A DNA stretch of 64,000 bases from assembly GCA_963805975.1 (NCBI GenBank), contig CAWDVR010000004.1, positions 1 through 64,000 of the forward strand, written 5' to 3'. The notes below the pieces were generated by a model. That model searched no databases. It was not told the origin of the DNA and saw nothing but the letters and a program-made list of their open reading frames with translations. The stretch is from an uncultured Acidobacteriota bacterium. GTDB taxonomy: Bacteria > Acidobacteriota > Thermoanaerobaculia > Multivoradales > SZUA-115. The position numbers and the translations under genes are program-made. Shown one piece after another: positions 3,066-51,051 of this stretch. Each line of letters opens with the position of its first letter. Within the stretch, counting starts at the first letter, position 1.

Positions 3066-3091
3066 AACGCGATCGTGGTATCGCCTAACAC

Positions 3092-6665: not shown

Positions 6666-6900
6666 TCAGATGGCCGGGAGGTTAAGCTTGGCGCTCGCGT
6701 GGCGCTGCACTGCTTCCCTTCGCCGGTCGTACCTCGCCGTCGTGACCGCGTCGGCGTGCCCTGCCAGCCGCTGGACGGTGAACACATCCACGCCGGCGTC
6801 GAGAAGGTCGGTGACGTAGGCCCTGCGGTACGAGTGCGGGGTGATTCCTTCAAGCCCCGCCGCGTGCGCTCCAAGGCCGATTTCAGGTACCACAGAAGGC
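6666..6900 (-). pseudogene. C-terminal remnant of an XerC/D-like tyrosine recombinase, same family as 41562-42495
   Basis: PHSYRRAYVTDLLDAGVDVFTVQRLAGHADAVTTARYDRR is identical to the 41.6-kb protein. Confidence 0.85.
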
Positions 6901-6940
6901 AGTTGGAGCGGGATTGACACTCATGCAACCCCACGGCTCC

Positions 6941-6993
6941 CTGTCGCAGAGCATCCCTGACACTCTGGGTCGAGCCACTGTCGCAGAGCATCC
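6941..6993. repeat. 16-bp direct repeat CTGTCGCAGAGCATCC x2
   Basis: Exact copies at 6941-6956 and 6978-6993. Confidence 0.85.
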
Positions 6994-7669
6994 AGGCGTC
7001 CCGTCACTCCGATCGGTAGCCAGGTGCTGAACCGTCGGACCTTTCGTCGTCCTGCGAACCAAGTAGGCAACGAAGCTCATCGGACGAAATCCTGTCCCAG
7101 AAGCTCCGAGTAACCCTCCGTACGGGGAGTTCACATCCTCGCCTGAACCGGGCCCACCTCGGGCTTCGCCCGTCGAAGGCCCACCGGTTCAACGAGTTCC
7201 GCAGGGCTTCGGATCGCCTCAGGCGCTGTCGTCTAATAGCTCGCTTCTCGAAGCTTCCGCCGAGCCCCGGCAAGGCTCTTCTGCGACACGCATTGTCGCG
7301 TTGCTTCCTATAGAGCGTGGTGTAGACTGCCACTAACTGCTGCCAAGCCAAGGAGTTGAACACGGCCCGATGCCGAGTCTTATCGCAGCCGACGCGACGT
7401 TGCTCGTCGGGTTAACACTGGGCAACTCAACGTCCCGCAAATAGAGAGGCGCAAGTTGGGCGGACGAGACACTGAGGAACGCATGCACCGATTCGTCACC
7501 TTCCTTGGGCGCGCCGCCGGCACCCCTGACGGTCCCCGACGCCACCCCGTCGGTGCCGAGAGACGATGAACGACCCGAACTGCCCATCGCTGCGTGTCGC
7601 TTCCCCAATGCTTCATGGCCGCCGCCGCAACTTCATTTTCGATAGTCCACGTCTCGTCAGGAGGTTCCC

Positions 7670-9530: not shown

Positions 9531-9539
9531 CAGAGTCGG

Positions 9540-11598: not shown

Positions 11599-11605
11599 GG
11601 TGTCT

Positions 11606-11680
11606 GGCTAACTGGTGCATCTACATTCGACGGGTCCAGTTATCCAGAATCCTTGAGACCCTCACTCGTCGCTGAAGTTC
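11606..11680 (-). other. Putative attI site, copy 1
   Basis: GTTAGCC core with no attC hairpin upstream. The upstream sequence is conserved with 41113-41190 and homology breaks down at the core. Confidence 0.75.
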
Positions 11681-11738
11681 CGAGAGGTCGAGGGGCGCCG
11701 CCCACTCGAAGTGCTTTCGGATGCCAGTAGTTAGGAGC

Positions 11739-11766
11739 ATTTTACGTCTACTTCAATAGGAGTCAA
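11739..11766 (-). promoter_or_regulatory. Sigma70-type cassette promoter (Pc-like)
   Basis: TTGACT-N16-TAAAAT facing attI, conserved at 41246-41273. Confidence 0.8.
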
Positions 11767-12204
11767 CCCGGCCCGAGAGTCCAGTTAGCGGAGCATCTTG
11801 ACCACCGGAAGGCTGGTCAAGTCGAAGTCGTTACACGGCGGTAAGGCTGCTTCGCGGAGGCGCCTGTAAGCCTCGCTGACAGAGGGGGATATGGCTGGCC
11901 TGGGCGATCCCGGACGGCTTGAGACTCGCCGGCCTGTGCTCTCGGAGAGGGGAGGGCGCGTTCTCCGCCTGCTGTCGTTCGCTGAACCTCCAGGGGCTCG
12001 CGGCGCTCGGACCCGGCGACTCAACTGAGCTGAGAGGACTTGCGGGCCACGAGGACCCGAAGGGCCTCGGCGCTTCACCGAAAAGGCGCCGGCCGTTCAG
12101 TGACTCAGAGCTTAGGCGGCCGGGTCTCAAGGCTCGACCTGGCAGCGTCGAGTTCAAAGACCTACTACTCGACATGTCCTGCGAGGCTCGACTGCACGGC
12201 GCTC

Positions 12205-17520: not shown

Positions 17521-17714
17521 AGCGGGCTGCCGGTACGGCCCTCGCCCGAGGGTTGGTCCCGCTGGGGAACAAGGATCCGGGGCGCTCGGCGGCAGGGCGC
17601 AACCTACGCCCGACTGCTCGTTCTGGTGTTTGCGCTATGTTTGCTCGCCTCGGACGAGGCTTCGCTGAGGGCCAACGGGAGTGCCTCTAACTCTCTGAGG
17701 AGAAAGCGGTTACC

Positions 17715-17760
17715 TGGTGCACCCTGCAGGACTCGAACCTGCAACCTTCTGATCCGTAGT
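17715..17760 (-). repeat. att core: 3' half of tRNA-Arg(ACG), left boundary of the middle island
   Basis: Minus strand ACTACGGATCAGAAGGTTGCAGGTTCGAGTCCTGCAGGGTGCACCA has the anticodon loop, T-arm and CCA but no 5' half. Identical to 57984-58029. Confidence 0.9.
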
Positions 17761-17941: not shown

Positions 17942-18043
17942 TCCCATCGTTGCAGGGGACCCCCACCAGGGGCCAGACGGCGCCCGGCGAGCCGGCTAAG
18001 CCGCGCCCAGGGTGGGCCCTCGCCCGGACCCCAAGAGGTGACC

Positions 18044-19345
18044 ATGACGCTGACCGACCGGCAGATCACCTGCGCCAAGTGCCCTTCCAACCTGAACCAA
18101 TACGACCTCCGGGACGAACAGGTCCGAGGGCTCGTCCTTCGGGTCTACACCCGGGGCGCCAAGTCCTGGTTTGTCTTCTACCGGCGCCGGCAGGACAACC
18201 AGCGGCGCATCCTCAAGCTGGGTGCCTACCCGGGCCTCTCGCTCAAGCAGGCCCGCGACCGGGCTGAGATCGAGCTCGGCCGGATCGCCGCAGGAGAAGA
18301 CCCCCAGGCCGAGCGCGAAGAGGTGCGCTCCCGAGGCAGCGCCTCGACGATGGCCGAGGTGGCTCAGGAGTACCTGGACCTCTACGCCAAGGAGCACAAG
18401 CGGCCGGCCAGCTACAGCATGGATCGCTGGCAGCTCGAGACGTACGTCCTGCCTCGGTGGGGCAAGCGGCCCGTCGTCGAGGTGACGAGGCGCGATGTCC
18501 AGGCCCTCCTTGAGGACGTTGCCAGCGGGAAGGTCGCGGCCAGAGGACGGCCGACGAAGGTCGCGCCCCGCAACCTGAAGGCGCTCCTCTCGAAGCTTTT
18601 CGACTGGGTAGCCGATCGGGGAGTCCTCGCCGGCAATCCGGCCGCCGGGGTGAAACTCCCGACGAGTGTCAGGGAGCACCTGAAGCGAGGCGGCCGGGAC
18701 CGAGTGCTCACCGACGAGGAGATCCGCACGCTATGGGAGGAGTTGGACCGGCTGGAGCAGGACCGCCGGACACAGGACTATGGCGCCGCTACGGCTGCGG
18801 CCTTCCGGCTGATGCTGCTCACCGCCCAGCGGTCCGGTGAGGTGCTCTCCATGCGGTGGAAGGACATCGAGGGCGGCGAGGTGTGGGTGGTCCCGGCCGA
18901 GGTGGCGAAGAACGGCGAGGCGAACCGCGTCTACCTCTCGCCCCAGGTGCAGGCGATCCTCCGAAGCCTGAAGACCGAAACCGGCGGCTCCGAGTGGGTG
19001 CTGGCGAGCGGGCGCAAGCCTGGGCACCATCTGACAACCGTCAAGACCGCAACCCAAGCAATCATCCGGCGAAACGACCAAAGGCATTGGACGCCCCACG
19101 ACTTGCGACGCACGGCGGCCTCGAAGATGCGGGCGATGAATATCTCGCGGCTCGTCGTCCAGGCGATCCTCAACCACAAGGACCGGAGCGTCACCGCCGT
19201 CTACGACCGCTACGGCCAAGACCCGGAGAAGAAGGCGGCGCTCTGCGCCTGGGGGCGACGGGTCGAGGAGATCGTGCGTGGCGGAGCGCCAGGGGCGGCT
19301 GTGGTGAGATTCCCGATCGGGCTAGAAGCCCGACTGGCAGTGTAG
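18044..19345 (+). CDS. P4-like tyrosine integrase with an arm-binding domain
   Basis: LRDEQVRGLVLRV, LGAYPGLSLKQAR, LLTAQRSGE, KNG, HDLRRT, LNH, VYDRY. Confidence 0.95.
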   Translation: MTLTDRQITCAKCPSNLNQYDLRDEQVRGLVLRVYTRGAKSWFVFYRRRQDNQRRILKLGAYPGLSLKQARDRAEIELGRIAAGEDPQAEREEVRSRGSASTMAEVAQEYLDLYAKEHKRPASYSMDRWQLETYVLPRWGKRPVVEVTRRDVQALLEDVASGKVAARGRPTKVAPRNLKALLSKLFDWVADRGVLAGNPAAGVKLPTSVREHLKRGGRDRVLTDEEIRTLWEELDRLEQDRRTQDYGAATAAAFRLMLLTAQRSGEVLSMRWKDIEGGEVWVVPAEVAKNGEANRVYLSPQVQAILRSLKTETGGSEWVLASGRKPGHHLTTVKTATQAIIRRNDQRHWTPHDLRRTAASKMRAMNISRLVVQAILNHKDRSVTAVYDRYGQDPEKKAALCAWGRRVEEIVRGGAPGAAVVRFPIGLEARLAV

Positions 19346-20717: not shown

Positions 20718-20933
20718 ATGGAGATAGACCGCATCCTCCGCCTGTCCGATCTCCTACAGGTCACCGGTATGTCGAGCGCCACCCTCTATCGATGGATCGG
20801 GGAGGGGCAATTCCCTGGGCCTTTGAAGCTGGGCCCGAACTCCGTCGGCTGGCGGGCCTCGGCGGTGCAGGCGTGGATCGACAGCCGTGAGCCGGCGGGA
20901 GTAGGGCCTGATCCGGAGACCGTAAGAAAATGA
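20718..20933 (+). CDS. alpA: AlpA-family regulator/excisionase
   Basis: RILRLSDLLQVTGMSSATLYRWI..GQFP..LGPNSVGW. Confidence 0.9.
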   Translation: MEIDRILRLSDLLQVTGMSSATLYRWIGEGQFPGPLKLGPNSVGWRASAVQAWIDSREPAGVGPDPETVRK

Positions 20934-21694
20934 GCTGGACACGCCCAAACCTCCTAGGCGCAGCGGCCATTCAATACGCCGGTCTCGGGTTCGCGGTCTT
21001 CCCGTTGCAACCGGGCGGCAAGGCGCCCAGAACGACCCACGGTCACCTGGACGCCACCACCGACCCGGCTCTCATCCGCCTCTGGTGGGAGTCGTGCCCA
21101 GGAGCCAACGTCGGCCTGGCGATCCCTATTGGCCTACTCGTCGTGGACATCGACGACCTCGATGCGTTGCTTCGCCTGAAGGCCGAAGACCGAGAGCTGC
21201 CCACGACGGCGAAGAGCCTGACCGGGCGGGGCTTCCATCTCTTCTATCGCACCGCAGAGGAGATCCGCAACGCTGTGAGCCTCTTTCCCGGCGTCGACCT
21301 CCGAGGCGTGGGTGGGTACGTAGTCGTTCCGCCGTCGGTCCATCCCTCGGGTATCCGCTACCAGTGGGAGGAGCCCCTCACGGAGTCGAGCGTCGCCGAG
21401 GCACCGGCCTGGCTGGTCGAAGCCGCGCTCGAGCGGAGCAGGCCGCGGGCCCGCCCTCCCGAGGAGTGGCGGGCGCTGGTCTCCCGGGGGGTGACGGAGG
21501 GCGGCCGCAACAACGCCGTTGCCACACTGGCCGGGCATCTGCTGCGCCGGGACGTCGATCCCTGGGTTGTGCTGGGCCTGCTGCTTTGCTGGAACGCGAC
21601 CCGGTGCCGGCCACCCCTCTCCGAGGCGGAGGTTACCCGTACCCTGGACAGCATCGCGGGGCGAGAAGTCCGCCGGAGGGAGCACTGTGCCTAG
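20930..21694 (+). CDS. Bifunctional primase-polymerase with PriCT-1 domain
   Basis: VFPL..GGKAP, ATTD, VVDID, TGRGFHLFY, DLRGVGGYVVVPPSVH, EGGRNN, PPLSEAEV. Confidence 0.9.
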   Translation: MSWTRPNLLGAAAIQYAGLGFAVFPLQPGGKAPRTTHGHLDATTDPALIRLWWESCPGANVGLAIPIGLLVVDIDDLDALLRLKAEDRELPTTAKSLTGRGFHLFYRTAEEIRNAVSLFPGVDLRGVGGYVVVPPSVHPSGIRYQWEEPLTESSVAEAPAWLVEAALERSRPRARPPEEWRALVSRGVTEGGRNNAVATLAGHLLRRDVDPWVVLGLLLCWNATRCRPPLSEAEVTRTLDSIAGREVRRREHCA

Positions 21695-23048
21695 GCCCTC
21701 CAATCTCGCGACCCTGGCGGCTCTCCAGGCCCAGGGCCCAGCAGAGGTTCCCCCCGTCATCACGCCGGCTTGGCCGAAGCTCGCCCCGGAAGCGATGCAT
21801 GGCCTCGCAGGGCAATTCGTCACGGCCATCGAGCCTCACACGGAAGCCGATTCCGTGGCGATCCTGGTCCAGTTCCTTTTGCTCTACGGCAACGTAATCG
21901 GCCGCAAGGCCCACTTCGTGGTGGAGGCGGACAAGCACCATCTCAACCTTTTCGCCATCCTGGTTGGAGAAACCTCGAAAGGCAGGAAGGGGACTTCTCT
22001 CGGCCAGGCTCAGCGCCTCTTCGAGAGCATCGACAAACCGTGGTCCGAGACCCGGATCGAGTCGGGTCTTTCAAGTGGAGGAGGCCTCATCTGGGTCGTC
22101 CGCGATCCCATCGAGAAGCTGGAGCGTGTCAAGCAGGGAAGCCAGGGCACCCGGTACGAGACCGTTCTCGTCGACCCCGGCATCGACGACAAACGGCTCG
22201 TCGTGGTCGAGGCCGAGTTCGCCTCCACCTTGCGGGTGCTGGCGCGGGATGGCAGTACCCTGTCGCCGATCATCCGCAAGGCCTGGGACACCGGAAGTCT
22301 CAGCTCGTTGACCAAGAACACTCCTGCGCGGGCGACCGGCGCTCACGTCTCCGTCATCGGTCACGTAACTCGCCAGGAATTGCTCCGCTACTTGACCTCT
22401 ACCGAAGCCGGCAACGGTTTTGGAAATCGGTTCTTGTGGGTCTGCGTCAAGCGGTCGAAGTGCCTCCCGGAAGGAGGGAGGTCAGACACGCTGGACCTCA
22501 GCGCTCTGAGCCGGGAGCTTCACGAAGCCGTGAGGTTCGGCAGGGCGACGGACGAGATGTGTCGGAATGACGAGGCACGTGAAGTCTGGGCGGAGGTCTA
22601 CGAGGAGCTGTCCGAGGGCAAACCGGGCTTACTGGGCTCGATGATCGCCCGCGCCGAGGCGCAGACGATGCGCCTGGCCTGCATCTATGCGCTTCTGGAC
22701 CGATCCGGCCTGGTTCGGAGGGAGCACCTCCTGGCAGGGCTCGCGCTCTGGGACTACTGCGAGGCCTCGGCTCGGTACATCTTCGGCGACACCCTCGGCA
22801 GTCCGGTGGCGGACGAGATCCTGCAGGCACTGACGGAGGCTCCTCAGGGGATGACCCGAACAGAGATCCGGAACCACTTTGGGCGCAATCGCGGGGCTCC
22901 GGAGGTGAACCACGCTCTCGGTCTGCTCTCCGAGAAGCACCTCGCCGAATCGCGCAAGGAAGAGACAGGGGGCCGGCCTGTGGAGCGTTGGTTTGCCTCG
23001 GCGATGGCCAAAGACGAAGCCGACCGAAACGAGCGGAGGAGGAACTGA
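21687..23048 (+). CDS. DUF3987-family replication helicase/ATPase
   Basis: TEAD, LVGETSKGRKGT, GLSSGGGL, GNGFGNRFL, and a C-terminal winged helix with GGRP. Confidence 0.8.
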   Translation: MPRPSNLATLAALQAQGPAEVPPVITPAWPKLAPEAMHGLAGQFVTAIEPHTEADSVAILVQFLLLYGNVIGRKAHFVVEADKHHLNLFAILVGETSKGRKGTSLGQAQRLFESIDKPWSETRIESGLSSGGGLIWVVRDPIEKLERVKQGSQGTRYETVLVDPGIDDKRLVVVEAEFASTLRVLARDGSTLSPIIRKAWDTGSLSSLTKNTPARATGAHVSVIGHVTRQELLRYLTSTEAGNGFGNRFLWVCVKRSKCLPEGGRSDTLDLSALSRELHEAVRFGRATDEMCRNDEAREVWAEVYEELSEGKPGLLGSMIARAEAQTMRLACIYALLDRSGLVRREHLLAGLALWDYCEASARYIFGDTLGSPVADEILQALTEAPQGMTRTEIRNHFGRNRGAPEVNHALGLLSEKHLAESRKEETGGRPVERWFASAMAKDEADRNERRRN

Positions 23049-23233
23049 GCAGGGCTTCTCGCGTTTCTGTCGTTTTTCGCGTAACCCCAGTCTGGAGACC
23101 AAGGACATGAAGACCACTCAAACACGAGGGAGTAAGGAGCCAACCGGGCGGGTAAGGAATAGACCTACGACCGAAACGACAAATACGACCAAAGGGGACC
23201 CGTCCCGTCGTGGTCGGCTGCCGCGAGATTGAG

Positions 23234-23485
23234 ATGAGCTACCTTGAGAAGGCAAAGCGAGTCGTCGCCGTCTCGGCCCTATTCGCCGGGCGGCCTGAGT
23301 GTTCGGACTGCCAGGGACTGGCGGCCAAGGGGGTCACCGTCCTGCGGTGCCTCCGCTGTGGGTACAGGGCCAGCAAGCCCTGCCACCACCCGACCTCAGC
23401 GCACCTCGTCCGTTCTCTGGCCCGCTCCCGCGATCGGGTTGCCCTTCAGCTTCGCCTAGCTCTGACGGAGGCCGGCGATGCCTGA
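23234..23485 (+). CDS. Small Cys-rich (zinc-finger-like) protein
   Basis: Two CxxC pairs; translationally coupled to the next gene. Confidence 0.5.
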   Translation: MSYLEKAKRVVAVSALFAGRPECSDCQGLAAKGVTVLRCLRCGYRASKPCHHPTSAHLVRSLARSRDRVALQLRLALTEAGDA

Positions 23486-24053
23486 CGAACGTCTCGAGCT
23501 CCGCTACGTACCCCTCTCCCAGGCTCGTCGCTGGGACGAGAACCCCAAGCGCCACGACCTCCCGGCGCTCACCCGCTCGATCGAGAACTACGGTTTCGGC
23601 GACCCGCCGAAGTTTGACGCCACGCTCGAAGCGTTGGTCTACGGCAATGGTCGCACCGAGGCCCTGGAGGTCATGCGGAGGGATGGCAAGGAGCCGCCGC
23701 GCGGGATCGGCGTCCTCGAGAGCGGGGAGTGGGCCATTCCAGTGATTTTCGGCGTCGACGCCAAGAGCCGCGCTCAGGCCGTCGCCTTTGCGATCGATCA
23801 CAATAATTTGACGTTGCTGGGTGGGAGTCTCAAGCTCGAAGACGTGCTCGCGATCTGGGACGAAGAGGGATTGAAGCGTGTTCTGGAGGAACTACCGGAC
23901 GCCGGTGCGCTGCTTGCCAGCATGGACGGCGCCGACCTCGACAGCCTGCTCTCGGGCCCGAAGTTTGATCCCATCGGCGGCGACGAGCAGCCCCGGCTCG
24001 ACGAGAAAAAGCTGGTCACCTGCCCGGAGTGCGGGCACGAGTTCAAGCGATGA
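23478..24053 (+). CDS. ParB/Srx-like nuclease-domain protein with a C-terminal zinc ribbon
   Basis: NPKRHD, SIENYGFGDP, GNGRTEAL, IDHN, CPECGHEF. Confidence 0.75.
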   Translation: MPDERLELRYVPLSQARRWDENPKRHDLPALTRSIENYGFGDPPKFDATLEALVYGNGRTEALEVMRRDGKEPPRGIGVLESGEWAIPVIFGVDAKSRAQAVAFAIDHNNLTLLGGSLKLEDVLAIWDEEGLKRVLEELPDAGALLASMDGADLDSLLSGPKFDPIGGDEQPRLDEKKLVTCPECGHEFKR

Positions 24054-24751
24054 ACACCCTGCACCTCGACTTCTGCTCACACGAGGCCGCCAAGCACGCG
24101 GTCATGCGTTGGCACTATTCGAGGCAGATGCCTAAGTGCAAGCTCGTCAAGGTGGGCGTCTGGGAAGAGAAACGCTTCGTCGGCGTCATCATCTTCGGGC
24201 TCGGCGCCAACCGCCATCTGGCCAGTCCGTTCGGTCTCCAGAGCACCGAGGTCGCGGAGCTGGTGCGCGTCGCCCTCGCATCGGGCCGAGCGCACCCGAC
24301 CTCGAAGTGTGTCGCGATCTCGCTCAAGCTGCTCCGCCGTCAGTCGCCGGGCTTGAAGCTGGTGGTCTCCTACGCCGACCGCGGGCAAGGCCACGTTGGC
24401 ACGATCTACCAGGCCGGCGGCTGGCTCTACCTGGGCGCGAGCGAGCAGGCCTACCTCAAGGTCAAGGGCAAGATCGAGCACCCACGGACGCTTTACGACC
24501 GCTACGGACGCCAGGGCCAGTCCATCCCATGGCTCCGCCTGCACGTGGACCCACGCGCTGAGCGCGTCCCCATGGCACCCAAGCTCAAGTACGTCATGCC
24601 CCTTGAGCCGGCGATCCGACGCCAGCTCGAAACGCAGGCAAAGCCCTATCCGAAACACGCGGCCGAAGTGACACGTAGCGACACGCCCGGTGTCCAGCCG
24701 GGAGAGGGGGGTGCGACGCCCACCCGGCCGCTCCATTCGGAAAGCCCATGA
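24050..24751 (+). CDS. Mom-like (GNAT-fold) DNA modification protein
   Basis: WHYS, ELVRVAL, VVSYADRGQGHVGTIYQAGGWLYLG resemble phage Mu Mom homologues. Confidence 0.8.
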   Translation: MNTLHLDFCSHEAAKHAVMRWHYSRQMPKCKLVKVGVWEEKRFVGVIIFGLGANRHLASPFGLQSTEVAELVRVALASGRAHPTSKCVAISLKLLRRQSPGLKLVVSYADRGQGHVGTIYQAGGWLYLGASEQAYLKVKGKIEHPRTLYDRYGRQGQSIPWLRLHVDPRAERVPMAPKLKYVMPLEPAIRRQLETQAKPYPKHAAEVTRSDTPGVQPGEGGATPTRPLHSESP

Positions 24752-25215
24752 TCGAAGCGAACGGCCCCGGCCGCCCCTCCAAGCTCACCCCGAAGGTGCA
24801 AGAGACGATCGTTGCTGTGATCCGTGCGGGCAATTACTCCTCCGTGGCAGCGGAGTACGCCGGCATCGGGCGGTCCACGTTCTACCACTGGCTGGAGCTC
24901 GGCGAGGAGCAGGAGTCCGGCTGTTATCGGGAATTCCTGGACGCGGTGCGAGGCGCGGAGAGCGAGGCTGAGATTCGAGCCGTCGCCACGATTCAAAGGC
25001 ATATGCCGAAGAGCTGGCAAGCGGCGATGGCCTACCTCGAGCGCAAATTTCCGCACAGGTGGGGGCGGCGGGTGGACGTGACCACGGCCGGGGAGCCGAT
25101 GGGGACGATCCGCCTAACCGTCCTGGACCCGAAGACGGGAGAGGAGGCTGAGATGCGCCTGCCCCCGTTGGGCCCCGGCAAACCCTACAGGAGAGACGAG
25201 CAGGCATCGCGGTGA
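24748..25215 (+). CDS. Terminase small subunit-like HTH protein
   Basis: GRPSKLTP, AAEYAGIGRSTFYHW, WQAAMAYLERKFP..WG. Confidence 0.7.
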   Translation: MIEANGPGRPSKLTPKVQETIVAVIRAGNYSSVAAEYAGIGRSTFYHWLELGEEQESGCYREFLDAVRGAESEAEIRAVATIQRHMPKSWQAAMAYLERKFPHRWGRRVDVTTAGEPMGTIRLTVLDPKTGEEAEMRLPPLGPGKPYRRDEQASR

Positions 25216-32484: not shown

Positions 32485-32762
32485 GTCGCTTCGTCCGCTT
32501 AGCCAAACCGACGGAGCCATGATTGACGCTGAAAAAATGATAGCGGGGTGATGGCTGTGCCGAGTATCTGCTGAGGGCTGAGGGATGCCGAGCGAGGCGG
32601 CAGCCAGCACGACGAAGATTGCCAGGTTAACCGCACTCACCTCGGCCGCCGCGTAATCCAAGAGGCGATTCTTAGGCCGACAGGAAGACATTCACATAAG
32701 TGACGGGATTCTTCGAGGCCATGGCCGTGCCCTTGGTACCTTGTCAGAGGAGAGAAACCGAT

Positions 32763-36218: not shown

Positions 36219-36220
36219 CC

Positions 36221-36460
36221 GGTGTACCGTCAACCTCATGCGCGACACTGAGCTATATGGGAAGATTCTCAGCATCGAGTCTCCGTGGCAGGTCGACGAG
36301 GTGGAGCTCGACGGCTCTGGCGGCGAGGTGCGAGTTCATCTGAGCCACGGCAAGCCGGGGCCGCCGTGTTCTGAATGTGGCGGGCCGGCCTGGGGCTACG
36401 GCAGCCGGTTTCGGCGCTGGCGACACCTCGACACCTGCCAGTTGCGGACGATCCTGGGTG
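36221..36460 (+). mobile_element. ISL3-family 5' remnant
   Basis: MRDTELYGKIL..PWQV..CSECG..RRWRHLDTCQ..T.L, then truncated. Confidence 0.8.
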
Positions 36461-36549
36461 GCGCAAGGCAAACGAGGATCGCTCGCTGCACGAGGTGCCG
36501 GTTCACGCGGAGCTGCTATGGCGCGTCGAGGAACCGGGACCGTCGCCCA

Positions 36550-37425: not shown

Positions 37426-37463
37426 GCCTCGGTGAGGGATCCGCAGTCCGTTGGGCTAACATG

Positions 37464-37626
37464 TATGAGGCCCCCGCCTGTCAAGGGCAAGCTGCTCCGC
37501 AGGCGATCTCTGGGACGGTAGGTCGCCAGGGAAGCAGAAGCCAGTGAGAGGATCGCTACTGCTCCACTTGGTTTCGCCTCGGCGCAGCGTGATGGAATCG
37601 TCTGCGCCAAACACGTATCGAAGCTC
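37464..37626 (-). mobile_element. Orphan IS110/IS1111-type right end, type A copy 3 (may extend to about 37790)
   Basis: Homologous to 777-939 and at the same 3-nt offset from R''. Confidence 0.65.
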
Positions 37627-37963
37627 TGACGCCGGCCAAGCGGCGTCGCCGAAACCCTCTGGACTCTGGTGGCTTAGAAACGATTCGGTGGCCTCGGGCT
37701 AGCCCCCTATCACGCGGACCTCTTTGGAGCGGGCAACGCCAGTTACTGTGTCGGGAGCACGCCGTCCGAAGAACTTGTGCCTACGCCCTAGAACCCACAG
37801 TCGAGGTAGGTCGCTTCCGGTGCTTCGATTGGGATGCGAATAAGACTGATCAGCTCGACGCTGGCAATGCAAGGACAGCGATAGGCACCCACATGGGTAC
37901 TTGCATTCTGCTTTGTTGATCTCGCTTGTCGTTAGTCATGTGCCTCAACCGTCCTTTCCTGAC

Positions 37964-38064
37964 GCCGAACGTCCTTGAGCTCAGGCGCAGCACTTGAGGT
38001 CTGACTCGAGCCGCAGGCCCGAGAGGAAGGCTGATGGTGCTGCGCCTGCGGCGAATTGTTCGGC
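37964..38064 (-). other. attC site
   Basis: Minus strand GCCGAAC..CAGGCGCAGCAC...GTGCTGCGCCTGA..GTTCGGC. Confidence 0.85.
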
Positions 38065-38088
38065 GGCAGCCTTCCTGACTCCTAGCCA

Positions 38089-38943
38089 TCAACGGTATGG
38101 CGAAGAGGATCTCCTCACTGAGACTCCCTTGAGACCTCGCCGCACCAGCTCCTTACGCACTTCCGACACGGGATGCGGATTCCGAGGGCCAAGCACTACG
38201 CCGCTGATCACCTGGCCAGGGTCCATCGCAATCGCTATATAGGGTGTCGGCACACCCCGCGACAAACGATAACAGATCGGCACTGCCGCTACGACATCGA
38301 TCGCGCCTATGTGTCCGCCCGGGTCTTCAAGGACGCCATCTCGCTCGACCAGGAGATGGACGAGGCGCACCTCCTGCTCCTCGAAGAAGCTCGGATGCTT
38401 CAACGAGAGAAGATCCACAGCGAGCCAAGGCAAGTTCTCGATGACAGCCTGAGCGCCGGCCGCGCCCCTAGCCCACCAGGAGGCGAACAGCTTCAGACTC
38501 GCCCGTACAAGTCGCCCCTGTCTCTTTCTGTCGTACTCCACTAGCTTCATGCGTACGGGGAGGTTGGCTCCCAAGCGAACGGCATTGAATTGGATGGCCA
38601 CGCCTTCGCCATCAGTAGCGTAGGCTCGCCATTGACTGAGCAGATCGCCGTTACGCGACAGACTAAACACTAGCGGCAGCACGTTCAGATGCGTCCCGAC
38701 CATGACGATTCGCACCGCCAGCGGGAAGTCCCCTGGATATCGGAACTTGTTCCTCTGGAGCTCGCGAAGCAGGATCTGCCGACCCCACAGCAACTCCACC
38801 GAATCGTTAAGGCACTTGATACTTGACAACCAGAGCGAGCAACTATCGAGAATAGCCCACAGCGTCGCTGTGGGGCAGTAGTGAAAGAGCTTCTCTCCAG
38901 GGAGTGGCTCGAAGCTCAGAGACGATAGGTCAAGGGCTGACAC
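38089..38943 (-). CDS. DUF2971 protein, cassette
   Basis: LFHY, LNDSVE, FSLS..GDLLSQWRAYA..GVAI, KH..F.EEQEVR, VVLGP. Confidence 0.9.
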   Translation of the reverse strand: MSALDLSSLSFEPLPGEKLFHYCPTATLWAILDSCSLWLSSIKCLNDSVELLWGRQILLRELQRNKFRYPGDFPLAVRIVMVGTHLNVLPLVFSLSRNGDLLSQWRAYATDGEGVAIQFNAVRLGANLPVRMKLVEYDRKRQGRLVRASLKLFASWWARGAAGAQAVIENLPWLAVDLLSLKHPSFFEEQEVRLVHLLVERDGVLEDPGGHIGAIDVVAAVPICYRLSRGVPTPYIAIAMDPGQVISGVVLGPRNPHPVSEVRKELVRRGLKGVSVRRSSSPYR

Positions 38944-39003
38944 ACTCTTCTAGCTCGCGCTTCTCAAACTTGCGAGAGCTCCTCGACCAGTCTTGCAAGT
39001 GCC

Positions 39004-39095
39004 GCCGAAAGTCAAGCATCAGCGCGCGCGCGACGGCGTGAAGGAAAAACGGAACTATTCCGCTGCGCGCGCTCCGCTGCATGCGCTAGTTCGGC
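39004..39095 (-). other. attC site with degenerate R' (TTTCGGC)
   Basis: Minus strand GCCGAAC..CAGCGGAGCGCGCG...CGCGCGCGCTGA..TTTCGGC. Confidence 0.8.
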
Positions 39096-39100
39096 GCTGT

Positions 39101-40222
39101 CTATCCGTAGGCAAGTTTCCAAACAGGAGTTCTCCGGCTGAGATAGGGGCTCAGTACTGAGAATGGAATAGTCGCTTGTGCGATCTTGACAACGAATGGT
39201 CCAACAAATGAGAACGACAAGCCTTCCTTAGTCACATTGAACAGCTTGAATCGGGAAGCATCGTCACTCTGCCAATCGTCGATAACAGGACTGAAGGTCG
39301 CCAAATCGAATTCGCCTTCGAACTCTTTCTTGATCTGCTCGTCGCAGAGCTCGATCAAGCGCGGGACAAAGTTGGTGTCGTACTCAAAGATGTCGTCTAC
39401 CAGGAGTTCAGCGACGGGCTTGAGAGTGAACGTAAGTGTACGACGCCAAAAGTTCGGATGGGCCGCCGGATAGTTGTAGTTTGAGAGATCAAACACGACG
39501 CTTACGAGCTCGGCAGACGCGTATGTAACCTGGGAGACACCTTCCAGAGTGGAGGTCGGCACGATTGGATGATCCTCGGTGCCCAATGTCTCACTGAACA
39601 GAACACGGCGAGCCCCATGAGCCTCGTCGAGCATGCGGCTCTTGATACGAGCGTTCACCTCATCGAGACCCAGGTCAACCGGGCCCTCAATCTGTGGGTA
39701 CTCGAGAGAGATGTCATATTGGCGTGTCGAGTCGGACTGATCAACAAGGCTCTCGTGACGAATGGTGATCCCTCCACCCGCAGCTTCGCGCTTCTCTTCA
39801 GCACGCCTAAGACGTCGCGCTCCTTCGTCAACTGCTGCACAGAGCCTGTTGAATCCATCCTCTGAGAAGAGGTCGACCCACTCGAAGTCGGACAGCGACT
39901 CAGGAACTTCGCAGTTTTCAAGTCGAGCTGGAATGATGTAGATGTCGTCATCGAACTTCTGCTGCCAGACGGAAAGTGCTTGGCGGATCTCTTTCTGAAG
40001 AAAGCCGCGTTTGCCAATTGATCGAGGCGAGAGAAGGGCTATGAAGAGTTCGGCTCGCTTTACGGCACGCCAAATGCTCTGCTCCCACTTCTCGCCTGGT
40101 AGAATGTCTCGCTTGTCCATCCAGGGCTGATACCCAGAATCCTGAAGCTGTCGGTAGAGAGCATCGACGGCCTCGTAGTCCTCGCTCGCGTAGCTCAGAA
40201 ACAGACGAATGGGCTGTGGCAA
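39101..40222 (-). CDS. TIR domain fused to a DUF4163/DUF3298 (RsiV/PdaC-like) domain, cassette
   Basis: LFLSYASED, PWMDKRDILPGEKW, FLQKEI; then YPQI..VN..I, LVSV..Y..AAHPN..TF, DDIF, FNVTKEGLSF. Confidence 0.75.
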   Translation of the reverse strand: MPQPIRLFLSYASEDYEAVDALYRQLQDSGYQPWMDKRDILPGEKWEQSIWRAVKRAELFIALLSPRSIGKRGFLQKEIRQALSVWQQKFDDDIYIIPARLENCEVPESLSDFEWVDLFSEDGFNRLCAAVDEGARRLRRAEEKREAAGGGITIRHESLVDQSDSTRQYDISLEYPQIEGPVDLGLDEVNARIKSRMLDEAHGARRVLFSETLGTEDHPIVPTSTLEGVSQVTYASAELVSVVFDLSNYNYPAAHPNFWRRTLTFTLKPVAELLVDDIFEYDTNFVPRLIELCDEQIKKEFEGEFDLATFSPVIDDWQSDDASRFKLFNVTKEGLSFSFVGPFVVKIAQATIPFSVLSPYLSRRTPVWKLAYG

Positions 40223-40268
40223 TCTTGTGGACCTCCGTCAGAGAGTGACCCGGACCTATGCGCGAGGC

Positions 40269-40333
40269 GCCGAACGGTCCGCCGATAAGCTGCGGGCGCC
40301 GAAGGCGACCGCCGCTTCATCGGCTTGTTAGAC
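40269..40333 (-). other. attC site
   Basis: Minus strand GTCTAAC (overlaps the stop codon)..AAGCGGCG...CGCAGCTTA..GTTCGGC. R'' is complementary to the attI core GTTAGAC. Confidence 0.9.
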
Positions 40334-41092
40334 AGCCCCCTTCCGCCCTCGATCGGATGTCTCAAAGTGCATCCTCTCCATGAAGATGTAGAAGAGATTC
40401 GCCTTCCTTCCTAACTCGCTCGACAGGTTGACGAGGTCCTCTTCGTAGACCGTTCGCTTGTAGGTCTCTTGGCAGGCCTTGAGCGTGGCGCGAACCCGAG
40501 TCGCGCCCCATGCGTCCTGGTTATTTTCACCCAGTCGCTGGATCTCTCTCGGCAGGAGCTTGTCGAACCATTTGAACCACCGAGTGAGAAGGGCATTTCC
40601 TTCGGTCGGAGTGATCGCCGCTTGATGGCCGACGATGCGCGGACCCTCTTCGGTCCATTCCACTGACAGGCCGCGACCTCGCTTTGGCTTCTCACCACGA
40701 ACCCCCATCGCATTGAGAAGGCCACGAACATTCAAGGAGAAGCCCCTGGGATCGCGGAAATCCGCGTACAGTTTGTCCCCCAATGGCGATGGCATGGGTG
40801 TCTCATCGACCCGCACCGGTAAGACCGACACCGACTGCCGTGAAAGTTCCTTTGACATAGCCAGGCTTAGTTCCTTCTGCACCCAGGGCGAGCGCGCTGC
40901 GTTTTTCGACATGACCACGATGACGAAGTCGACATCACGGATCGCTTCGGCGACACGATCGATAATCGAGTCGCCGATGCGAAGCTTCGCTTCGTCCAAC
41001 CACACTGAGATGCCGTGCGCGGCAAGCCTCTTCGCAAGCCGCCTGGCAAACGGCTTGTCGTGGGTGTTGTGGCTGAGGAATACAGAGGGCAT
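40328..41092 (-). CDS. TIR-domain protein with an unknown C-terminal domain, first cassette
   Basis: VFLSHN..DK.FARRL, VWLDE..IGDS, SPWVQKEL, LYADF. Confidence 0.9.
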   Translation of the reverse strand: MPSVFLSHNTHDKPFARRLAKRLAAHGISVWLDEAKLRIGDSIIDRVAEAIRDVDFVIVVMSKNAARSPWVQKELSLAMSKELSRQSVSVLPVRVDETPMPSPLGDKLYADFRDPRGFSLNVRGLLNAMGVRGEKPKRGRGLSVEWTEEGPRIVGHQAAITPTEGNALLTRWFKWFDKLLPREIQRLGENNQDAWGATRVRATLKACQETYKRTVYEEDLVNLSSELGRKANLFYIFMERMHFETSDRGRKGAV

Positions 41093-41112
41093 CGCCAGTG
41101 CCTCTCGGGGCT

Positions 41113-41190
41113 GTCTAACTAGTGCATCTACATTGGACGGGTTCAGCGTTCCAGGATCCCTAGACTCGCACTCGTTCGCTGAAGCTCCGA
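41113..41190 (-). other. Putative attI site, copy 2
   Basis: GTTAGAC core; GTGCATCTACATT.GACGGGT.CAG shared with 11606-11680. Confidence 0.75.
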
Positions 41191-41245
41191 GAGGGGGCAG
41201 AGCGTCGCCCACTCGAAGCGCTTTCGGATGCCAGTAGTTAGGAGC

Positions 41246-41273
41246 ATTCTATGCCTACTTCAATAGGAGTCAA
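41246..41273 (-). promoter_or_regulatory. Sigma70-type cassette promoter (Pc-like)
   Basis: TTGACT-N16-TAGAAT facing attI. Confidence 0.8.
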
Positions 41274-41561
41274 CGCGGTGGTGAGGTTCGGCTATCGGGC
41301 ACCTCGGCTGCCGGGAGGTTGCCTGGTCGAAGTCGCCACGCGATTCTGAGGCAGCTTCGCGAAGGCTCATAACCCTACCTCCACCTTGGACGAGGGAGAA
41401 CGGGGCGTGTTGTCCGGCTGCGGTCGTTCGTTGACCCTGGAGGCTTGCGGTGCTCCAGCCCAGCGACTCACGTGGTACTTAGGCTACGGGATCCGAGCGG
41501 CGTCGGCGCTTCCCTGAGTGCCGCCGGCCGTTGAACGCCTCGAGCCTAGACGACGGGAAGC

Positions 41562-42495
41562 TCAGAGGTCCGAAGGGACCGGAAGGCGAAGTTTGGCGCT
41601 GGCGTGCCTCTGCACCTCGCCCCGCCGTCGGTCGTACCGGGCAGTCGTGACTGCATCGGCGTGTCCCGCCAGCCGCTGGACGGTGAACACGTCCACGCCA
41701 GCATCCAGGAGATCGGTGACGTAGGCCCTGCGGTAGGAGTGCGGCGTAATCCCTTCGACACCTGCCTGCTGCTGACGCCGTCTGAGGATGTACCACAGCG
41801 ACTCGCCCCGCATACGGCTAACGCGCACCTGGCCCGAGCTGCTCACCGGGCAGAAGAGCGCACCTGGCTCTGAGCCCCGCTCCCGGGTCCAGGTCTGGAG
41901 GAATCGGCAGACCTGCGGCGTCAGGTACACCGTCCGATCCCGCCGGCCTTTCCCGCTCCGTACGGTGAGCATGCAGGCCTCGGCGCCGAAGTCTGCCAGG
42001 TCGAGCCCGCACAGCTCTGCCCGCCGCAGGCCACCGCCATAGAGCACGGCGAGCATGGCGGCGTCGCGCCGGCCCGCTGGTGACAGGTCAGCCGCACAGA
42101 CCTTGAACAGCGCCCGGAGGCTCCTCCTGCTCAACGGCCCGCCCGCTCGGCAGCGTCTTCGCCTTGACGTTCTCCACGTCCACAGCCCGGGCATACGTCT
42201 CGTGGTCCAGCAGGCCGAGCCGCCAGGCGTTCTTGAGGACGCACCGTAGCGCCGAGAGCATCCGGTTCACGGTGGACGGGGCGAAGCGCTGAGTGAGCGC
42301 CGCCCTCACCGCCGCGGTGTCGCGGTAGCGGACCTTCCACCAAGGGTAGGTCCAGGGGTCGGTGCCGTCGCCGCCGAGGAGGCAGGCGACAGTCTCGAGC
42401 GAGTGCCGCACGGCCCAATAGCTTCCGGGCGCCAGAGAGTCGAGGTAGACGCGGGCAGGGTTGTCCTCCTGCTTGCGGCGTCGGGGCGTCGTCAT
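41562..42495 (-). CDS. XerC/D-like tyrosine recombinase (not IntI), one frameshift near 42120
   Basis: APSTVNRMLSALR, RDAAML..GLRRAEL, GKG, HSYRR, AGH, TTARYDRR. Lacks the IntI-specific insertion. Confidence 0.85.
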
Positions 42496-42755
42496 GGGGT
42501 GGTCTCCTGTCGGTCGGAATGTCTGTCCCACAGGCCCTTGGGGCTGGCCTGGGCCAGAGGCGGGTGCCCACACTCGACCGGTACGCGTCAGGCACCTTGG
42601 CGGGCCTCCCAGGGCCGGTGGGACAGGCTCTCCTCGGTCGGTCAGGATCTCCTGGGCCGGCCGAGTGGGGCTGGGTCATGGATGGGGATCGATGGACAGT
42701 AGAGGGAGGGCCGGGCGGCCAGGACACGGGCTCCAGACCGCCCTCCAAGGTCGGC

Positions 42756-43193
42756 TCAGGCGGCGCCCTTGCGCTTGCCACCGCGGACCGGCTTGCGCTC
42801 GACCGGCTCGACCTCAGCCGGGGCTGCTGCTCCTGGCTCGGTGAACCGGAAGCCCACGATTCCCTGGCCGAACGCCTCAGCGTCGAAGGTCCGGGCCTCG
42901 GCCAGCGCCAGCCCATAGTGAGCGAAGAAGCGGCGGCCGTCCACCAGACCCGAGCGGTTGGCCTGCTGGCGGAGCCTGTAGCGCCCTCGGCTCCCCTCAG
43001 GCGCCGGGCGCATGCCGACCGTCTTGGTCACCGTGTCGTAGCCGAGCTGGACGGCGGTGACTCCCTCGCCGAGCAGGGCCACGGCCGCGCCGGTCAGGGA
43101 CACCTGGCCGCTACGTCGGACTGTGATCTTCGGCGCCCGGTTGTCGGTCCTGGCGCCCTCGAAGAACTCGAACTGGTCGAAGCTGGTGCTCAT
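42756..43193 (-). CDS. Hypothetical protein, possibly AbrB-like DNA-binding
   Basis: RBS AGGAGG; KITVRRSGQVSL; basic C-terminal tail. Confidence 0.6.
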   Translation of the reverse strand: MSTSFDQFEFFEGARTDNRAPKITVRRSGQVSLTGAAVALLGEGVTAVQLGYDTVTKTVGMRPAPEGSRGRYRLRQQANRSGLVDGRRFFAHYGLALAEARTFDAEAFGQGIVGFRFTEPGAAAPAEVEPVERKPVRGGKRKGAA

Positions 43194-46258: not shown

Positions 46259-46861
46259 TCAGGCCTCCAGCTCGCTCCTCGCCGCTCTTGGACGGAGGAC
46301 CACGCCGCACCTTCCAAGCGCCCGGCGGAGGCGAAACAGGATGCTGTCCACGCTCCCCGGGCGTAGGCCCACTCGCGCGCCGACCTCTCGGTTGGTGAAG
46401 CCTGCAAGGTAGGTCAGCACGAAGATCCGGTACTGTCGGGTCGAGAGCTCCCGCCGACACTCGGCGAGCTTGTGGTGCAGGGTGTCGCGGCCCATCAGCG
46501 TCTGCTCTGGCGTAGGAGGCCACGCGGCCACGAGCCCGGCGCTCTCGCCGTTGGTCGAAGCGGGCGCCTCGCGCTTCTTGGCTCTGCCGCGACGCACGGC
46601 GTCGATGGTCAGGTTGCTAGCGGCGCGAAGCACGTAGGCCGGGAAGTCCTCGACCTCTTCCGGCACACCGCGCTCCCAGAGACGCAGCAGGAGATCCTGG
46701 GCCAAGTCGTCGATGGCGTCGTCCTGGAGGCGGACTCCACGCACTGCGGCAGTCCACCGGATGAGCCTGCGGATGCTGGCGTGAAGGTCCGGGCTCAGAC
46801 TGGTCGTGAAGAGGTCGGGGTCTGAGCCCACACCTTTCCCTTCCACGAGTCGCCGTGTCAT
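46259..46861 (-). CDS. ECF-type sigma-70 factor
   Basis: DDLAQDLLLRLW, AYV..AASNL.ID..R, region-4 HTH (LSTRQYRIF..GFTNREVG). Confidence 0.85.
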   Translation of the reverse strand: MTRRLVEGKGVGSDPDLFTTSLSPDLHASIRRLIRWTAAVRGVRLQDDAIDDLAQDLLLRLWERGVPEEVEDFPAYVLRAASNLTIDAVRRGRAKKREAPASTNGESAGLVAAWPPTPEQTLMGRDTLHHKLAECRRELSTRQYRIFVLTYLAGFTNREVGARVGLRPGSVDSILFRLRRALGRCGVVLRPRAARSELEA

Positions 46862-47032
46862 CAGCTCCTCCGCGCCTTGCGGGTCTGTGGGTCGAGTCCG
46901 GGCCGGTGCTAGCCTGGTCGTGGGGGCAATGTCTGGGAGGGCCGGAGATGCCTGGACGCAGCTGAGGTAGGTCTCCCAGGCATCGATGCCTCGCCGGCCT
47001 CCCAGAACCTCCCACGCCCCTTGGACCGGCGA

Positions 47033-47557
47033 TCAACTCTCGGCCGTGGGCTCCTCGGCCTGGGCCTCAGCAGCCTTCCGCTCCCCTGTCCGCGCCTTGA
47101 GCCGGTCGGCCAGGATCACCCCGGCGCGACGCAGCGCCGTGGACCCTGCCGCCTCCAGGAGAAGCGCCAGCGAGGCAGGCGAGAGCGCGAGGTGCAGACC
47201 GCTGTGGAGGCAGACTAGAGTCTCGGGGTCGAACGTGGCCAGCCAGCCCACCGTCTCGGGCTTCGTCCCTGAGGCCAGAGCGCTCACAGGGAAGCCCTGG
47301 GCTTCCGCCTCGTCGGAGAGGACAAGGCGAACATCTCTCCCGGTCGCCGGGAGTATCGCCGCCGCCAGTAGCGCCAGTTCCCGGTCCTTGAACACGGCAT
47401 GCGGAGCCGCGTCGCCGTCCTGCACAACGCCCCAGCGCCCTCGGTCGAGTGTGACCACCCGCCAGGGTCCAGAGGTCGAGGCTTCGAGGCCAGTCGCCGG
47501 TTCGTCGTGCTCGGCAAAGTGGTCGAGGAACTCAGGGGCGAAGGCGTTGGGCTCCAT
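47033..47557 (-). CDS. Hypothetical protein
   Basis: RBS AAGGAG and ATG; co-oriented with the sigma and recombinase genes. Confidence 0.6.
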   Translation of the reverse strand: MEPNAFAPEFLDHFAEHDEPATGLEASTSGPWRVVTLDRGRWGVVQDGDAAPHAVFKDRELALLAAAILPATGRDVRLVLSDEAEAQGFPVSALASGTKPETVGWLATFDPETLVCLHSGLHLALSPASLALLLEAAGSTALRRAGVILADRLKARTGERKAAEAQAEEPTAES

Positions 47558-48100
47558 GGCAAGGCTCCTTCTCGGGTGCTCCGAGAGACAAGCCGGGCCT
47601 GGGGCTGGAGATCGCTCGAGCCTCAGGCCACAGGCAGTGGTCATGAGGCTGGTAGCAGTACGGGGACCGGCGCCGGCTGGTCAACCGGGGCGAGAGCTTT
47701 AGCAGTGGGGAGCTAAGCTCGAGCCAGGCGCGGGCGGCGCGTCTGCATCCCTACCGTCTATCTGCCGCCGATCTGAGCCGCCTATTCGCTGCCACTTCCT
47801 CTCCGGCTAGCGGCGGGCAGAGGACTGGCCCGGGCCAATCCGTGGTTGAGTTCGGCTGCGGCGGACGCTCGGCTCCCGACCGTCTCTACCTGAGGTCTCC
47901 AGTTCGTGACCATTACCACGCGGTAGGCGGCCGGAAGTCAGGCAGATCCGCAGCCTTGCACTGTCCTCACTCGCAGTTCGTGACAACCCGCCGTTCACCC
48001 ATTTGGCGTGGTGGCGGCAGGGGCAGGTGCATAGAGAGTTCGGCTAAGATCGAGTCCAATGGTTGAGCCAGTTCAGGAGCGCGCCCAGCATGAGCTGCGA

Positions 48101-50358: not shown

Positions 50359-51051
50359 TTAGATCTTTCCTCGCTGGTGCAGCGACACCCACCGTCCCAG
50401 CTCACCAAGGATCAGATGGTCCTGGAGTCTGATCCCGACTGTCGCTGCGGCCTCCACCATGCGACGGGTGAACAGGATGTCCTCGCTGCTTGGTTGCAGA
50501 TCTCCACTTGGGTGCGTGTGGAACAGGACGATGACCGAGGCGCCCGCAAGGATCGCTTCCTTGAGGATCGCTCGGGGCTCGACAGCCGCGTGGGTCAGAG
50601 TGCCGCGGTAGATCTCCCGGCACGCCAGCAGGCGGTAGCAGCCGTTGAGGAGAAGGGCGCCGAGCACCTCTTGGTTCTGATCGCCGTAGGTGAGGGTCAG
50701 GTAGCGCGCGACCTCGGCAGCTCGGGTCAGTGGATAGCGCCGTGGGATCTCAGCGAAGGCCAGACGTCGCGCCAGCTCGATAGCCCCCAGGACCGCCGCG
50801 GCCTTGGTCTCGGTGAGACCGATCCGGACCAGCGAGTGGAAGCTCAGCGATGGAAGGCCGGCGATTCCACCTATCTCGGCGAGCACTCCCTGCGCGAGAA
50901 GCTGGGTGTCGGCCCGGTGGTGCCCGTTGGCAAGGCACAAGGCGAGGAGTTCCAAGTCCGCGAGGGTGCCGGCTCCGTGCGCTACCAGCCGGTCTCGGGG
51001 GCTCTCCGGGGCCGGGGCTTTACGCAGGGGACTGGATCGAGGCCGCCGCAT
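50359..51051 (-). CDS. radC: RadC/JAB-domain protein
   Basis: PRDRL..G...L.D.ELLAL, QEV, GTL, HTHPSGD..PS.ED, LQDHLI. Confidence 0.95.
   Translation of the reverse strand: MRRPRSSPLRKAPAPESPRDRLVAHGAGTLADLELLALCLANGHHRADTQLLAQGVLAEIGGIAGLPSLSFHSLVRIGLTETKAAAVLGAIELARRLAFAEIPRRYPLTRAAEVARYLTLTYGDQNQEVLGALLLNGCYRLLACREIYRGTLTHAAVEPRAILKEAILAGASVIVLFHTHPSGDLQPSSEDILFTRRMVEAAATVGIRLQDHLILGELGRWVSLHQRGKI

Follow-up and report, generated by a model that had tools for sequence, protein, structure and literature searches.

Cassette arrays without a nearby intI are described as attC clusters that lack an integron-integrase (CALIN), and loss of intI, rearrangement, and insertion at secondary attG sites have been proposed as their origins (PMC4889954; 10.1101/2022.09.11.507474). 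In these two papers, the origin of CALIN and the expression of their promoterless cassettes are presented as an open question. An IntI located elsewhere has been proposed to capture cassettes in trans or to service such arrays (PMC4889954, PMC9668308). Here we describe an array of three cassettes headed by an integrase-less integron platform. It locates in the window, by which we mean the whole 64,000-nt stretch analysed (C4:1-64000) from an uncultured Acidobacteriota bacterium, for which the labels of homologous proteins suggest the class Thermoanaerobaculia; the assembly holding it, G000, has 5.36 Mb in six contigs and is 96.35% complete. By definition (PMC4889954), the array is a CALIN, as it carries three attC sites where at least two are needed, and no intI is nearby, the nearest intI remnant lying 29 kb off. 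It resembles CALIN and single attC sites lacking integron-integrases (SALIN) in its short array of two or more attC sites without intI. In contrast to them, it keeps its own attI and cassette promoter (Pc), and such pads are multi-copy, with 13-15 per genome in three genomes. None of the origins taken above from the CALIN papers involves a platform that was itself dispersed repeatedly.

The co-oriented ('inverted') chromosomal integron is the second related arrangement, in which attI lies downstream of the 3' end of intI (PMC4889954). An archaeal attI downstream of intI has also been described (PMC9668308). G002, a relative of the same family, has this arrangement in full, with the promoter and attI motif of the window copy, whereas intI is absent at the window locus and from the genome as assembled. 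Our literature search, which covered few subscription papers and no supplements, returned no description of multi-copy orphan attI-Pc pads or of an attI pad in a phage satellite.

We consider it probable that the locus is an integrase-less platform copy (attI and a predicted Pc) that heads three cassettes in the cargo slot of a satellite-like island, that the cassettes came from an IntI encoded elsewhere, and that the neighbouring tyrosine recombinase is a bystander. This reading builds on the anatomy of the locus, the complementarity at its junctions, the synteny of the island, the 13 dispersed copies found here and the 1 to 15 found in each of five relatives, in an assembly that contains no intact intI. 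An attI outside a few classes is invisible to standard tools, and with an attI/Pc model specific to the lineage, we find that many short arrays come with a pad of their own. Multi-copy pads, with one in the cargo slot of a satellite-like island, link two known reservoirs of anti-phage genes.

Anatomy of the integron platform

On the minus strand, the recombinase gene is followed by approximately 450 bp of non-coding platform, the G|TT crossover at 41119, and the three cassettes. The sequence-only reading, an earlier note made from the letters of the window, held that attI, promoter and upstream spacer are homologous to a copy at 11.6 kb (copy A), and that the homology breaks at the GTT crossover. 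Comparison within the window agrees on both points. Region 41111-41366 is 78% identical to 11604-11861, and region 41403-41552 is 70% identical to 11954-12118. The match reaches 28 of 31 nt up to the crossover (26 nt before it and 5 nt from it) and then drops to 22 of 60 nt. At the opposite end, platform homology extends to 41572, overlapping the last codons of the recombinase.

The predicted Pc faces the array, with the -35 box at 41273-41268, a 16-nt spacer, and the -10 box at 41251-41246. It is the sole sigma-70-like match across 37800-42700. Since shuffled sequence yields 0.7 matches, the scan by itself is weak evidence, and the argument for the promoter is carried by conservation. The attI crossover follows approximately 130 nt after the -10 box, with the spacing and motif of the intact G002 integron, and promoter and attI are conserved better than the spacer between them. 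We also compared attI ends with the middle spacer in pairs of copies, which were chosen after the data had been seen. Between the window copy and copy A, the ends match at 25/28 positions and the spacer at 61/87 (p=0.047); between the intact and an orphan platform of G002, the values are 28/28 and 63/85 (p=0.002).

Compared with a complete integron, the locus has a G|TT attI and attC-bounded cassettes, and lacks an intI with the IntI-specific insertion beside attI. A coding function of the platform was rejected, because indels among the copies are not all multiples of three. No Rfam family matches the platform; the only match found is the 3' end of a group II intron at 32330-32484, of which a near-identical second copy lies at C4:586315-586613. 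Scanning viral contigs with the promoter motif gave one match, inside an AT-rich tail-fibre-like gene, which we judged to be chance.

Cassettes and attC sites

Three attC-bounded cassettes had been predicted, encoding a TIR protein, a TIR-DUF3298 protein and a DUF2971 protein. All three are present, but in the middle attC the G of GTT is gone and the R' box reads TTT, owing to a mutation or to an error in sequencing. Unless the base is such an error, cassettes 2 and 3 may be fused. Our attC scanner, a heuristic of our own that misses degenerate sites (e.g. 11107-11176), scores the three sites at 22.25-24, and the maximum in three shuffles of the window is 20.0. Folding of the bottom-strand hairpins gives z-values of -3.6 for attC 1, -1.6 for attC 2, which is weak, and -2.7 for attC 3. 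The R'' box of each cassette is the exact complement of G plus the first six bases of that cassette, which at the level of sequence is the pattern expected of IntI-type integration.

The TIR_2 domain matches both TIR cassettes (E=5e-30 and 3e-27), and DUF2971 matches the third (E=5e-8). For the C-terminal domain of cassette 1, an Atlas search was uninformative, with a best score of only 0.79. In cassette 2, the DUF3298 match of the protein itself is weak (E=0.014), and its full-length homologues carry TIR, PdaC and DUF3298. Its structure model, with a mean predicted local distance difference test score (pLDDT) of 83, finds RsiV bound to lysozyme as the best structural match (E=1.5e-10), and DUF3298 structures also match; a sequence search of the PDB with the C-terminal part gave no match. 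Residue E78 of its TIR domain, which we take to be the catalytic glutamate, is invariant across 23 aligned sequences.

We notice that no transmembrane helix is seen between the two domains of this fusion, in sequence or in the model, and that it has about 20 full-length homologues. RsiV binds lysozyme (PMC4183432). By analogy, the TIR-RsiV-like protein could sense phage lysozyme in the cytoplasm, with a TIR enzyme coupled to the sensor. No publication describing the fusion turned up in our literature search.

On sequence grounds, the cassettes are likely defence genes. Carriage of anti-phage genes by integron cassettes is established (10.1101/2024.07.02.601686). DUF2971 is a domain of the lactococcal anti-phage protein Aristaios (PMC11381338) and belongs to an ADP-ribosyltransferase-like family (PMC12522546). 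Aristaios is a single-gene system for which an ADP-ribosyltransferase fold is predicted (PMC11381338), and cassette 3 has the same Pfam domain. Matches from PADLOC and NCBIfam cover the TIR domain only, with every NCBIfam match under its cut-off. The array is not recognised as Thoeris or another named TIR system, and contains no ThsA.

Dispersed copies of the platform

Our platform model counts 13 distinct copies in G000 that hold the promoter or both promoter and attI, among them the window platform; this multi-copy nature was absent from the sequence-only reading. The model, R1, was built from 25 copies and searched against 41 genomes, including eight of the family (G000-G007), among which G001 is an independent assembly from the same genus. 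It gives 49 hits, 25 of them training copies: 14 in G000, two of which stem from a single locus in overlapping ends of contigs, 13 in G001, 15 in G002, 5 in G006, and 1 each in G003 and G004. No hit was found in G005, G007 or 33 genomes of other families. Most copies in G000 are far from any member of the island recombinase family. A type II subfamily of platforms forms a separate clade with 99/99 support.

The attI part is included in 37 of the 49 hits, and 24 of those 37 keep the GTT. A same-strand attC lies within 3.5 kb of 15/24 GTT-keeping hits versus 3/25 others (p=0.0003), with controls of 4/49 on the opposite strand and 2/49 upstream. In 10 of 16 platforms with a called attC (one being the intact integron; the scanner mis-anchored on G001:C54 in this comparison), R'' complements the attI junction exactly, and the 7-mers vary. 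This complementarity is kept though the platforms diverged by 20-30%. Among 46 first open reading frames (ORFs), there is one homologous pair only, aside from the contig-overlap duplicate.

The 5' ends of the copies are ragged and lie between about 40 and 610 nt upstream of the -10 box; an intI tail is kept in some, and copies often start just behind the stop codon of an unrelated gene. At four insertions in G001 with empty sites in G000, the junctions lie near gene ends with small replacements, and these four sites show no common target duplication or GTT signature. At G002:C8:17740-25052, four platform copies lie within 7.5 kb, with a single gene without attC between two of them. Copies at C6:1356-1493 and C4:571321-571491 are in other integrative islands, which have P4-type integrases and small helix-turn-helix genes.

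Source of the integrase and history of the array

Among the eight family genomes, only G002 has an intact intI; behind it come a spacer, the promoter motif and attI known from the window, and cassettes. This genome also has 14 orphan hits. In the class, IntI occurs in 141 of 301 genomes, a tally that includes the unpublished G044, G199 and G203. At 31 intI loci of the class, a same-strand attC lies downstream at 15 and the classical layout is found at 1; without unpublished G199 and G203, the downstream count is 13 of 29. Wherever an array is visible, co-orientation is the rule in the class. Three co-oriented integrons of the class (L061, L066, L071) have a conserved small ORF between intI and attI. 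The intI remnant that had been claimed upstream of copy A is genuine (Table 1). That remnant (12290-12365) and another in G001:C180, which follows the recombinase, have the same start motif, a one-base loss and a His-to-Cys change, and this suggests that both descend from one ancestral pseudogene in the genus.

We infer the dispersal, loading, expression, defence and transfer of the platform along the following lines. The ancestor of the platform would be the 3' side of a co-oriented integron such as the one in G002, fragments of which, with ragged 5' ends, would have been copied to many intergenic sites, one of them into the cargo slot of the island, where it would have clipped the last codons of the recombinase. 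An IntI from elsewhere would have inserted cassettes at attI one by one. If the orphan attI is kept under selection, IntI would have acted in trans, at the least in earlier times or when supplied by incoming DNA. Pc would transcribe the cassettes constitutively, the first most strongly, by which the island would gain exchangeable defence cargo and carry the loaded pad to new hosts. The recombinase would serve the island itself, for example in resolving an excised circle. We put forward more tentatively that integron function is distributed: each genome would have at least a dozen promoter-attI pads served by a single IntI, shared or transient, and a family of phage satellites would have such a pad in its defence hotspot and could thereby shuttle defence cassettes from cell to cell without intI.

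Several results weigh against loading by an IntI from elsewhere and against an exchangeable defence cargo. A six-frame search of G000 found no intact intI or IntI-specific domain, so that present-day loading in trans is not demonstrated, and G001, G003, G004 and G006 gave no intact intI with the G002 IntI as query. In no pair of genomes was one orphan pad, alike in subfamily and locus, found with different cassettes; cassette exchange after dispersal is thus not directly demonstrated. The GTT is missing from 13 of 37 attI parts, and the third comparison of attI ends with spacer is not significant (27/29 vs 67/86, p=0.09). No cassette is matched over its full length by a named anti-phage system in PADLOC or NCBIfam. 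Finally, a type II platform with its AHSA1 cassette is common to G000 and G001 at different loci (85% identity in DNA, 91% in protein), which fits frozen units.

Some of these observations agree with another explanation, in which the pad was copied or broken off a master integron with its cassettes, has seen no exchange since, and is a mere promoter for useful cargo, that is, a CALIN keeping attI and Pc. The lack of an intact intI in G000 and G001, the shared platform-cassette unit, the attC-like sites elsewhere in the window that are interrupted by repeats, the changed crossover of attC 2, and the 12 of 49 hits without the attI part are in line with such a relic. On the other hand, attI in orphan copies is conserved above the adjacent spacer, R''/R' complementarity is intact across platforms that are 20-30% diverged, and G002 retains its intI beside its orphan hits. 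We therefore regard a frozen relic as rather unlikely, though it probably describes G000 as it is now and does not account for the building of the arrays.

Returning to supply by an IntI from elsewhere, there is good support for the proposed service in trans in G002 and, as something of the past, in G000, but not for a present-day process there; in G000, it is likely historical or occasional. Selection on orphan attI ends together with the situation in G002 favours loading in trans over evolutionary time, while the shared unit and the large number of decayed crossovers speak for loading being inactive in the genus today. Contig C4 begins inside a decayed plus-strand cassette array (window 1-4000) whose head is unassembled and which overlaps none of the contig ends; an intI may therefore be hidden there. 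With the cognate IntI of a relative, loading in trans becomes directly testable.

The neighbouring recombinase

In the intI position, the sequence-only reading had placed an XerC/D-like gene without the IntI-specific insertion. The insertion, a distinguishing feature of IntI (PMC4889954), is indeed absent, and the catalytic motifs of tyrosine recombinases are present. The gene shares this fold and these motifs with XerC and XerD, but is island-borne and scores far below both family cut-offs: an intact homologue (P0002) reaches 122 bits against 335 for XerC and 108 against 330 for XerD (NCBIfam equivalogs), and 75 against 265 for TIGR02249. Relatives have 306-307 residues, and the window copy has one extra base near 42128. 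This base may be an assembly error; between G001 and G000, frames are also split in 2 of 25 ORF comparisons, some of which possibly concern shadow ORFs. The family occurs in 24 of 201 genomes of the order, with up to 10 matches each.

The same reading had raised a new recombinase-attI pairing, in which this XerC-like enzyme would recombine or mobilise the attI platform as a substitute integrase. In the two genomes of the genus, its 3' end adjoins integron DNA, another platform has a second recombinase fragment approximately 40 bp away, and at G002:C27 a motif of approximately 17 nt like the start of the type II spacer follows the recombinase stop, with no platform or array behind it. Yet besides the missing insertion and the frameshift, no attC or platform lies downstream at any of 20 recombinase loci (13-14 kb each, except one of 7 kb and one of 11 kb). 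Two or more attC were found at 0 of 29 further loci, several of them short and at least one repeating a locus of the first set, with a single marginal match at three. The recombinase is near only 3 of 48 distinct platform hits, and one of these three copies is truncated and in opposite orientation. The two abutting pads differ in subfamily and join point, ragged 5' ends are unlike site-specific mobilisation, and starts behind stops of unrelated genes are common among pads. We consider the pairing highly improbable, and the headline novelty of the sequence-only reading, a non-IntI integron recombinase, does not hold. An 11-nt spacer motif was tried as a recombinase site; it has 86 matches genome-wide, mostly in genes, and is suggestive only at G002:C27.

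In close relatives of the recombinase, similarity ends at the stop, two codons past a conserved LP, and the downstream DNA is different at every locus. Behind the gene in G001 come 70 bp of a decayed intI tail, then a type II platform whose crossover is degenerate, and then a gene other than those of the window array. This pair, one copy from G000 and one from G001, is the only one among the platform copies with an upstream flank in common. On the proposed check, adjacency with different cassettes, integron DNA fills the slot behind the recombinase in two genomes with different content each time, and the adjacency is limited to the 3 of 48 platform hits named above. Different content in a slot occupied twice, with a shared upstream flank, supports a hotspot and does not support an enzyme-site pairing. 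The recombinase is likely a resident island gene that borders the cargo slot and is functionally unrelated to the platform. A long-read misjoin at the recombinase-platform junction is just as improbable as the pairing: the assembly is error-prone, the overlapping ends of C6 and C2 being only 94.7% identical, but the window platform is unique in the genome (nearest copy 78%), which leaves no repeat to misjoin, and G001 has a platform in the same slot.

The satellite-like island

The platform had been placed inside a satellite-like mobile island that carries an integrase-less attI/promoter pad, and our analysis bears this out. The island of approximately 40 kb ends in repeats of the 3' half of tRNA-Arg(ACG) and encodes an integrase, primase, helicase, ParB, Mom and small terminase (Table 1). 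Its variable cargo slot is the stretch between the small terminase and the recombinase. The right-arm module, consisting of RadC, an unknown ORF, an extracytoplasmic function (ECF) sigma factor, a small ORF and the recombinase, recurs at tRNA-Arg att repeats in G001:C180 and G002:C27; the arms of the island are the same at these two loci. The homologous island of G001 holds a pad of a different subfamily and a different cargo gene.

Satellites like the phage-inducible chromosomal islands (PICI) have an AlpA/Stl-type regulator, a size of 10-20 kb, a tRNA-targeting integrase, a primase, a small terminase for packaging interference, and defence hotspots. The window island resembles them in its integrase and direct repeats at a tRNA, its primase/helicase replication module, its small terminase without virion genes, and its variable defence-like cargo. 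When 33 island ORFs were compared with PHROGs, primase, helicase and small terminase were found, one helicase had a weak 'scaffolding' match, and no capsid or large terminase was detected. The island differs from PICI-like satellites in its larger size, in the extra tyrosine recombinase and sigma factor, in the integron pad in the slot, and in the AlpA/Stl-type regulator, for which domain and PHROGs scans gave no match.

Table 1. Positions of the integron locus, related copies and island genes in the window.
Feature	Positions	Strand	Basis or remark
Integron platform, type I subfamily (intI-attI spacer, Pc, attI)	41119..41572	-	5'-truncated, no intI tail left
Predicted Pc promoter (-35/-10 boxes, 16-nt spacer)	41246..41273	-	consensus and conservation
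attI core	41113..41145	-	crossover cut between G 41119 and T 41118
Cassette 1: TIR protein, ATG 41092 to 40328	40275..41118	-	TIR_2 domain match; C-terminal domain unassigned
attC 1 (intact)	40269..40333	-	scanner, folding
Cassette 2: TIR fused to PdaC/DUF3298 (RsiV-like fold), ORF 40222-39101	39010..40274	-	domain matches, homologues, model
attC 2 (R' TTT in place of GTT)	39004..39095	-	scanner, folding
Cassette 3: DUF2971 (ADP-ribosyltransferase-like) protein, ORF 38943-38089	37970..39009	-	domain match
attC 3 (intact)	37964..38064	-	scanner, folding
Platform copy A (type I), heads two other cassettes, outside island	11606..12120	-	homology to the 41119-41572 platform
intI 3' remnant, about 50 codons	12215..12361	-	87% identical to G002 IntI, residues 268-313
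Type II platform, heads AHSA1 cassette (attC 8236-8297)	6899..7463	+	model hits
3' fragment of second copy of the same recombinase	6672..6860	-	truncated, beside type II platform, opposite orientation
Tyrosine recombinase of island right arm, non-IntI, about 307 aa in relatives	41562..42495	-	frameshifted near 42128; last codons overlap platform
Left island boundary, copy of tRNA-Arg(ACG) 3' half	17704..17760	-	repeat
Right island boundary, copy of tRNA-Arg(ACG) 3' half	57973..58029	-	repeat
Island integrase (Arm-DNA-bind_3 and phage integrase domains)	18038..19345	+	domain matches
Left arm: Prim-Pol, primase/helicase, ParB-like, Mom-like, terminase small subunit	20930..25215	+	domain and PHROGs matches
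Small conserved ORF travelling with recombinase	42756..43193	-	locus comparison
ECF-like sigma factor and upstream unknown ORF, right-arm module	46259..47644	-	domain matches, synteny
RadC/JAB gene, right arm	50359..51051	-	domain match, synteny

Other features of the window

A second, degenerate type II attI lies on the plus strand of the same island at 32572-32683. It heads the genes in 32700-37450, one for a 1172-aa patatin protein and an ankyrin gene with an interrupted attC at its end, which converge on the studied array. Further defence-like genes, namely a KAP NTPase (PifA-like), an Mrr-type nuclease, EVE-HNH and an MkoC-like helicase, are at 13973-15394, 27815-29185, 30027-31487 and 51475-54660. 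An intact tRNA-Arg(ACG) is present at the start of C5 (C5:1-177), but the att repeats are inside C4 (C4:57884-58029), which points to a rearrangement or an assembly break in a tandem island array.

We also notice a repeat of approximately 175 bp at 767-940, 2329-2498, 37453-37634 and C4:74631-74725. In the three window copies, it starts approximately 2 nt after an R''-like box of an attC, and it resembles the attC-targeting elements of the IS1111 type. An IS110-family element at 8290-9845 has a second copy at C2:1589-3144; the two are 99% identical, and each starts directly at an attC R' box.

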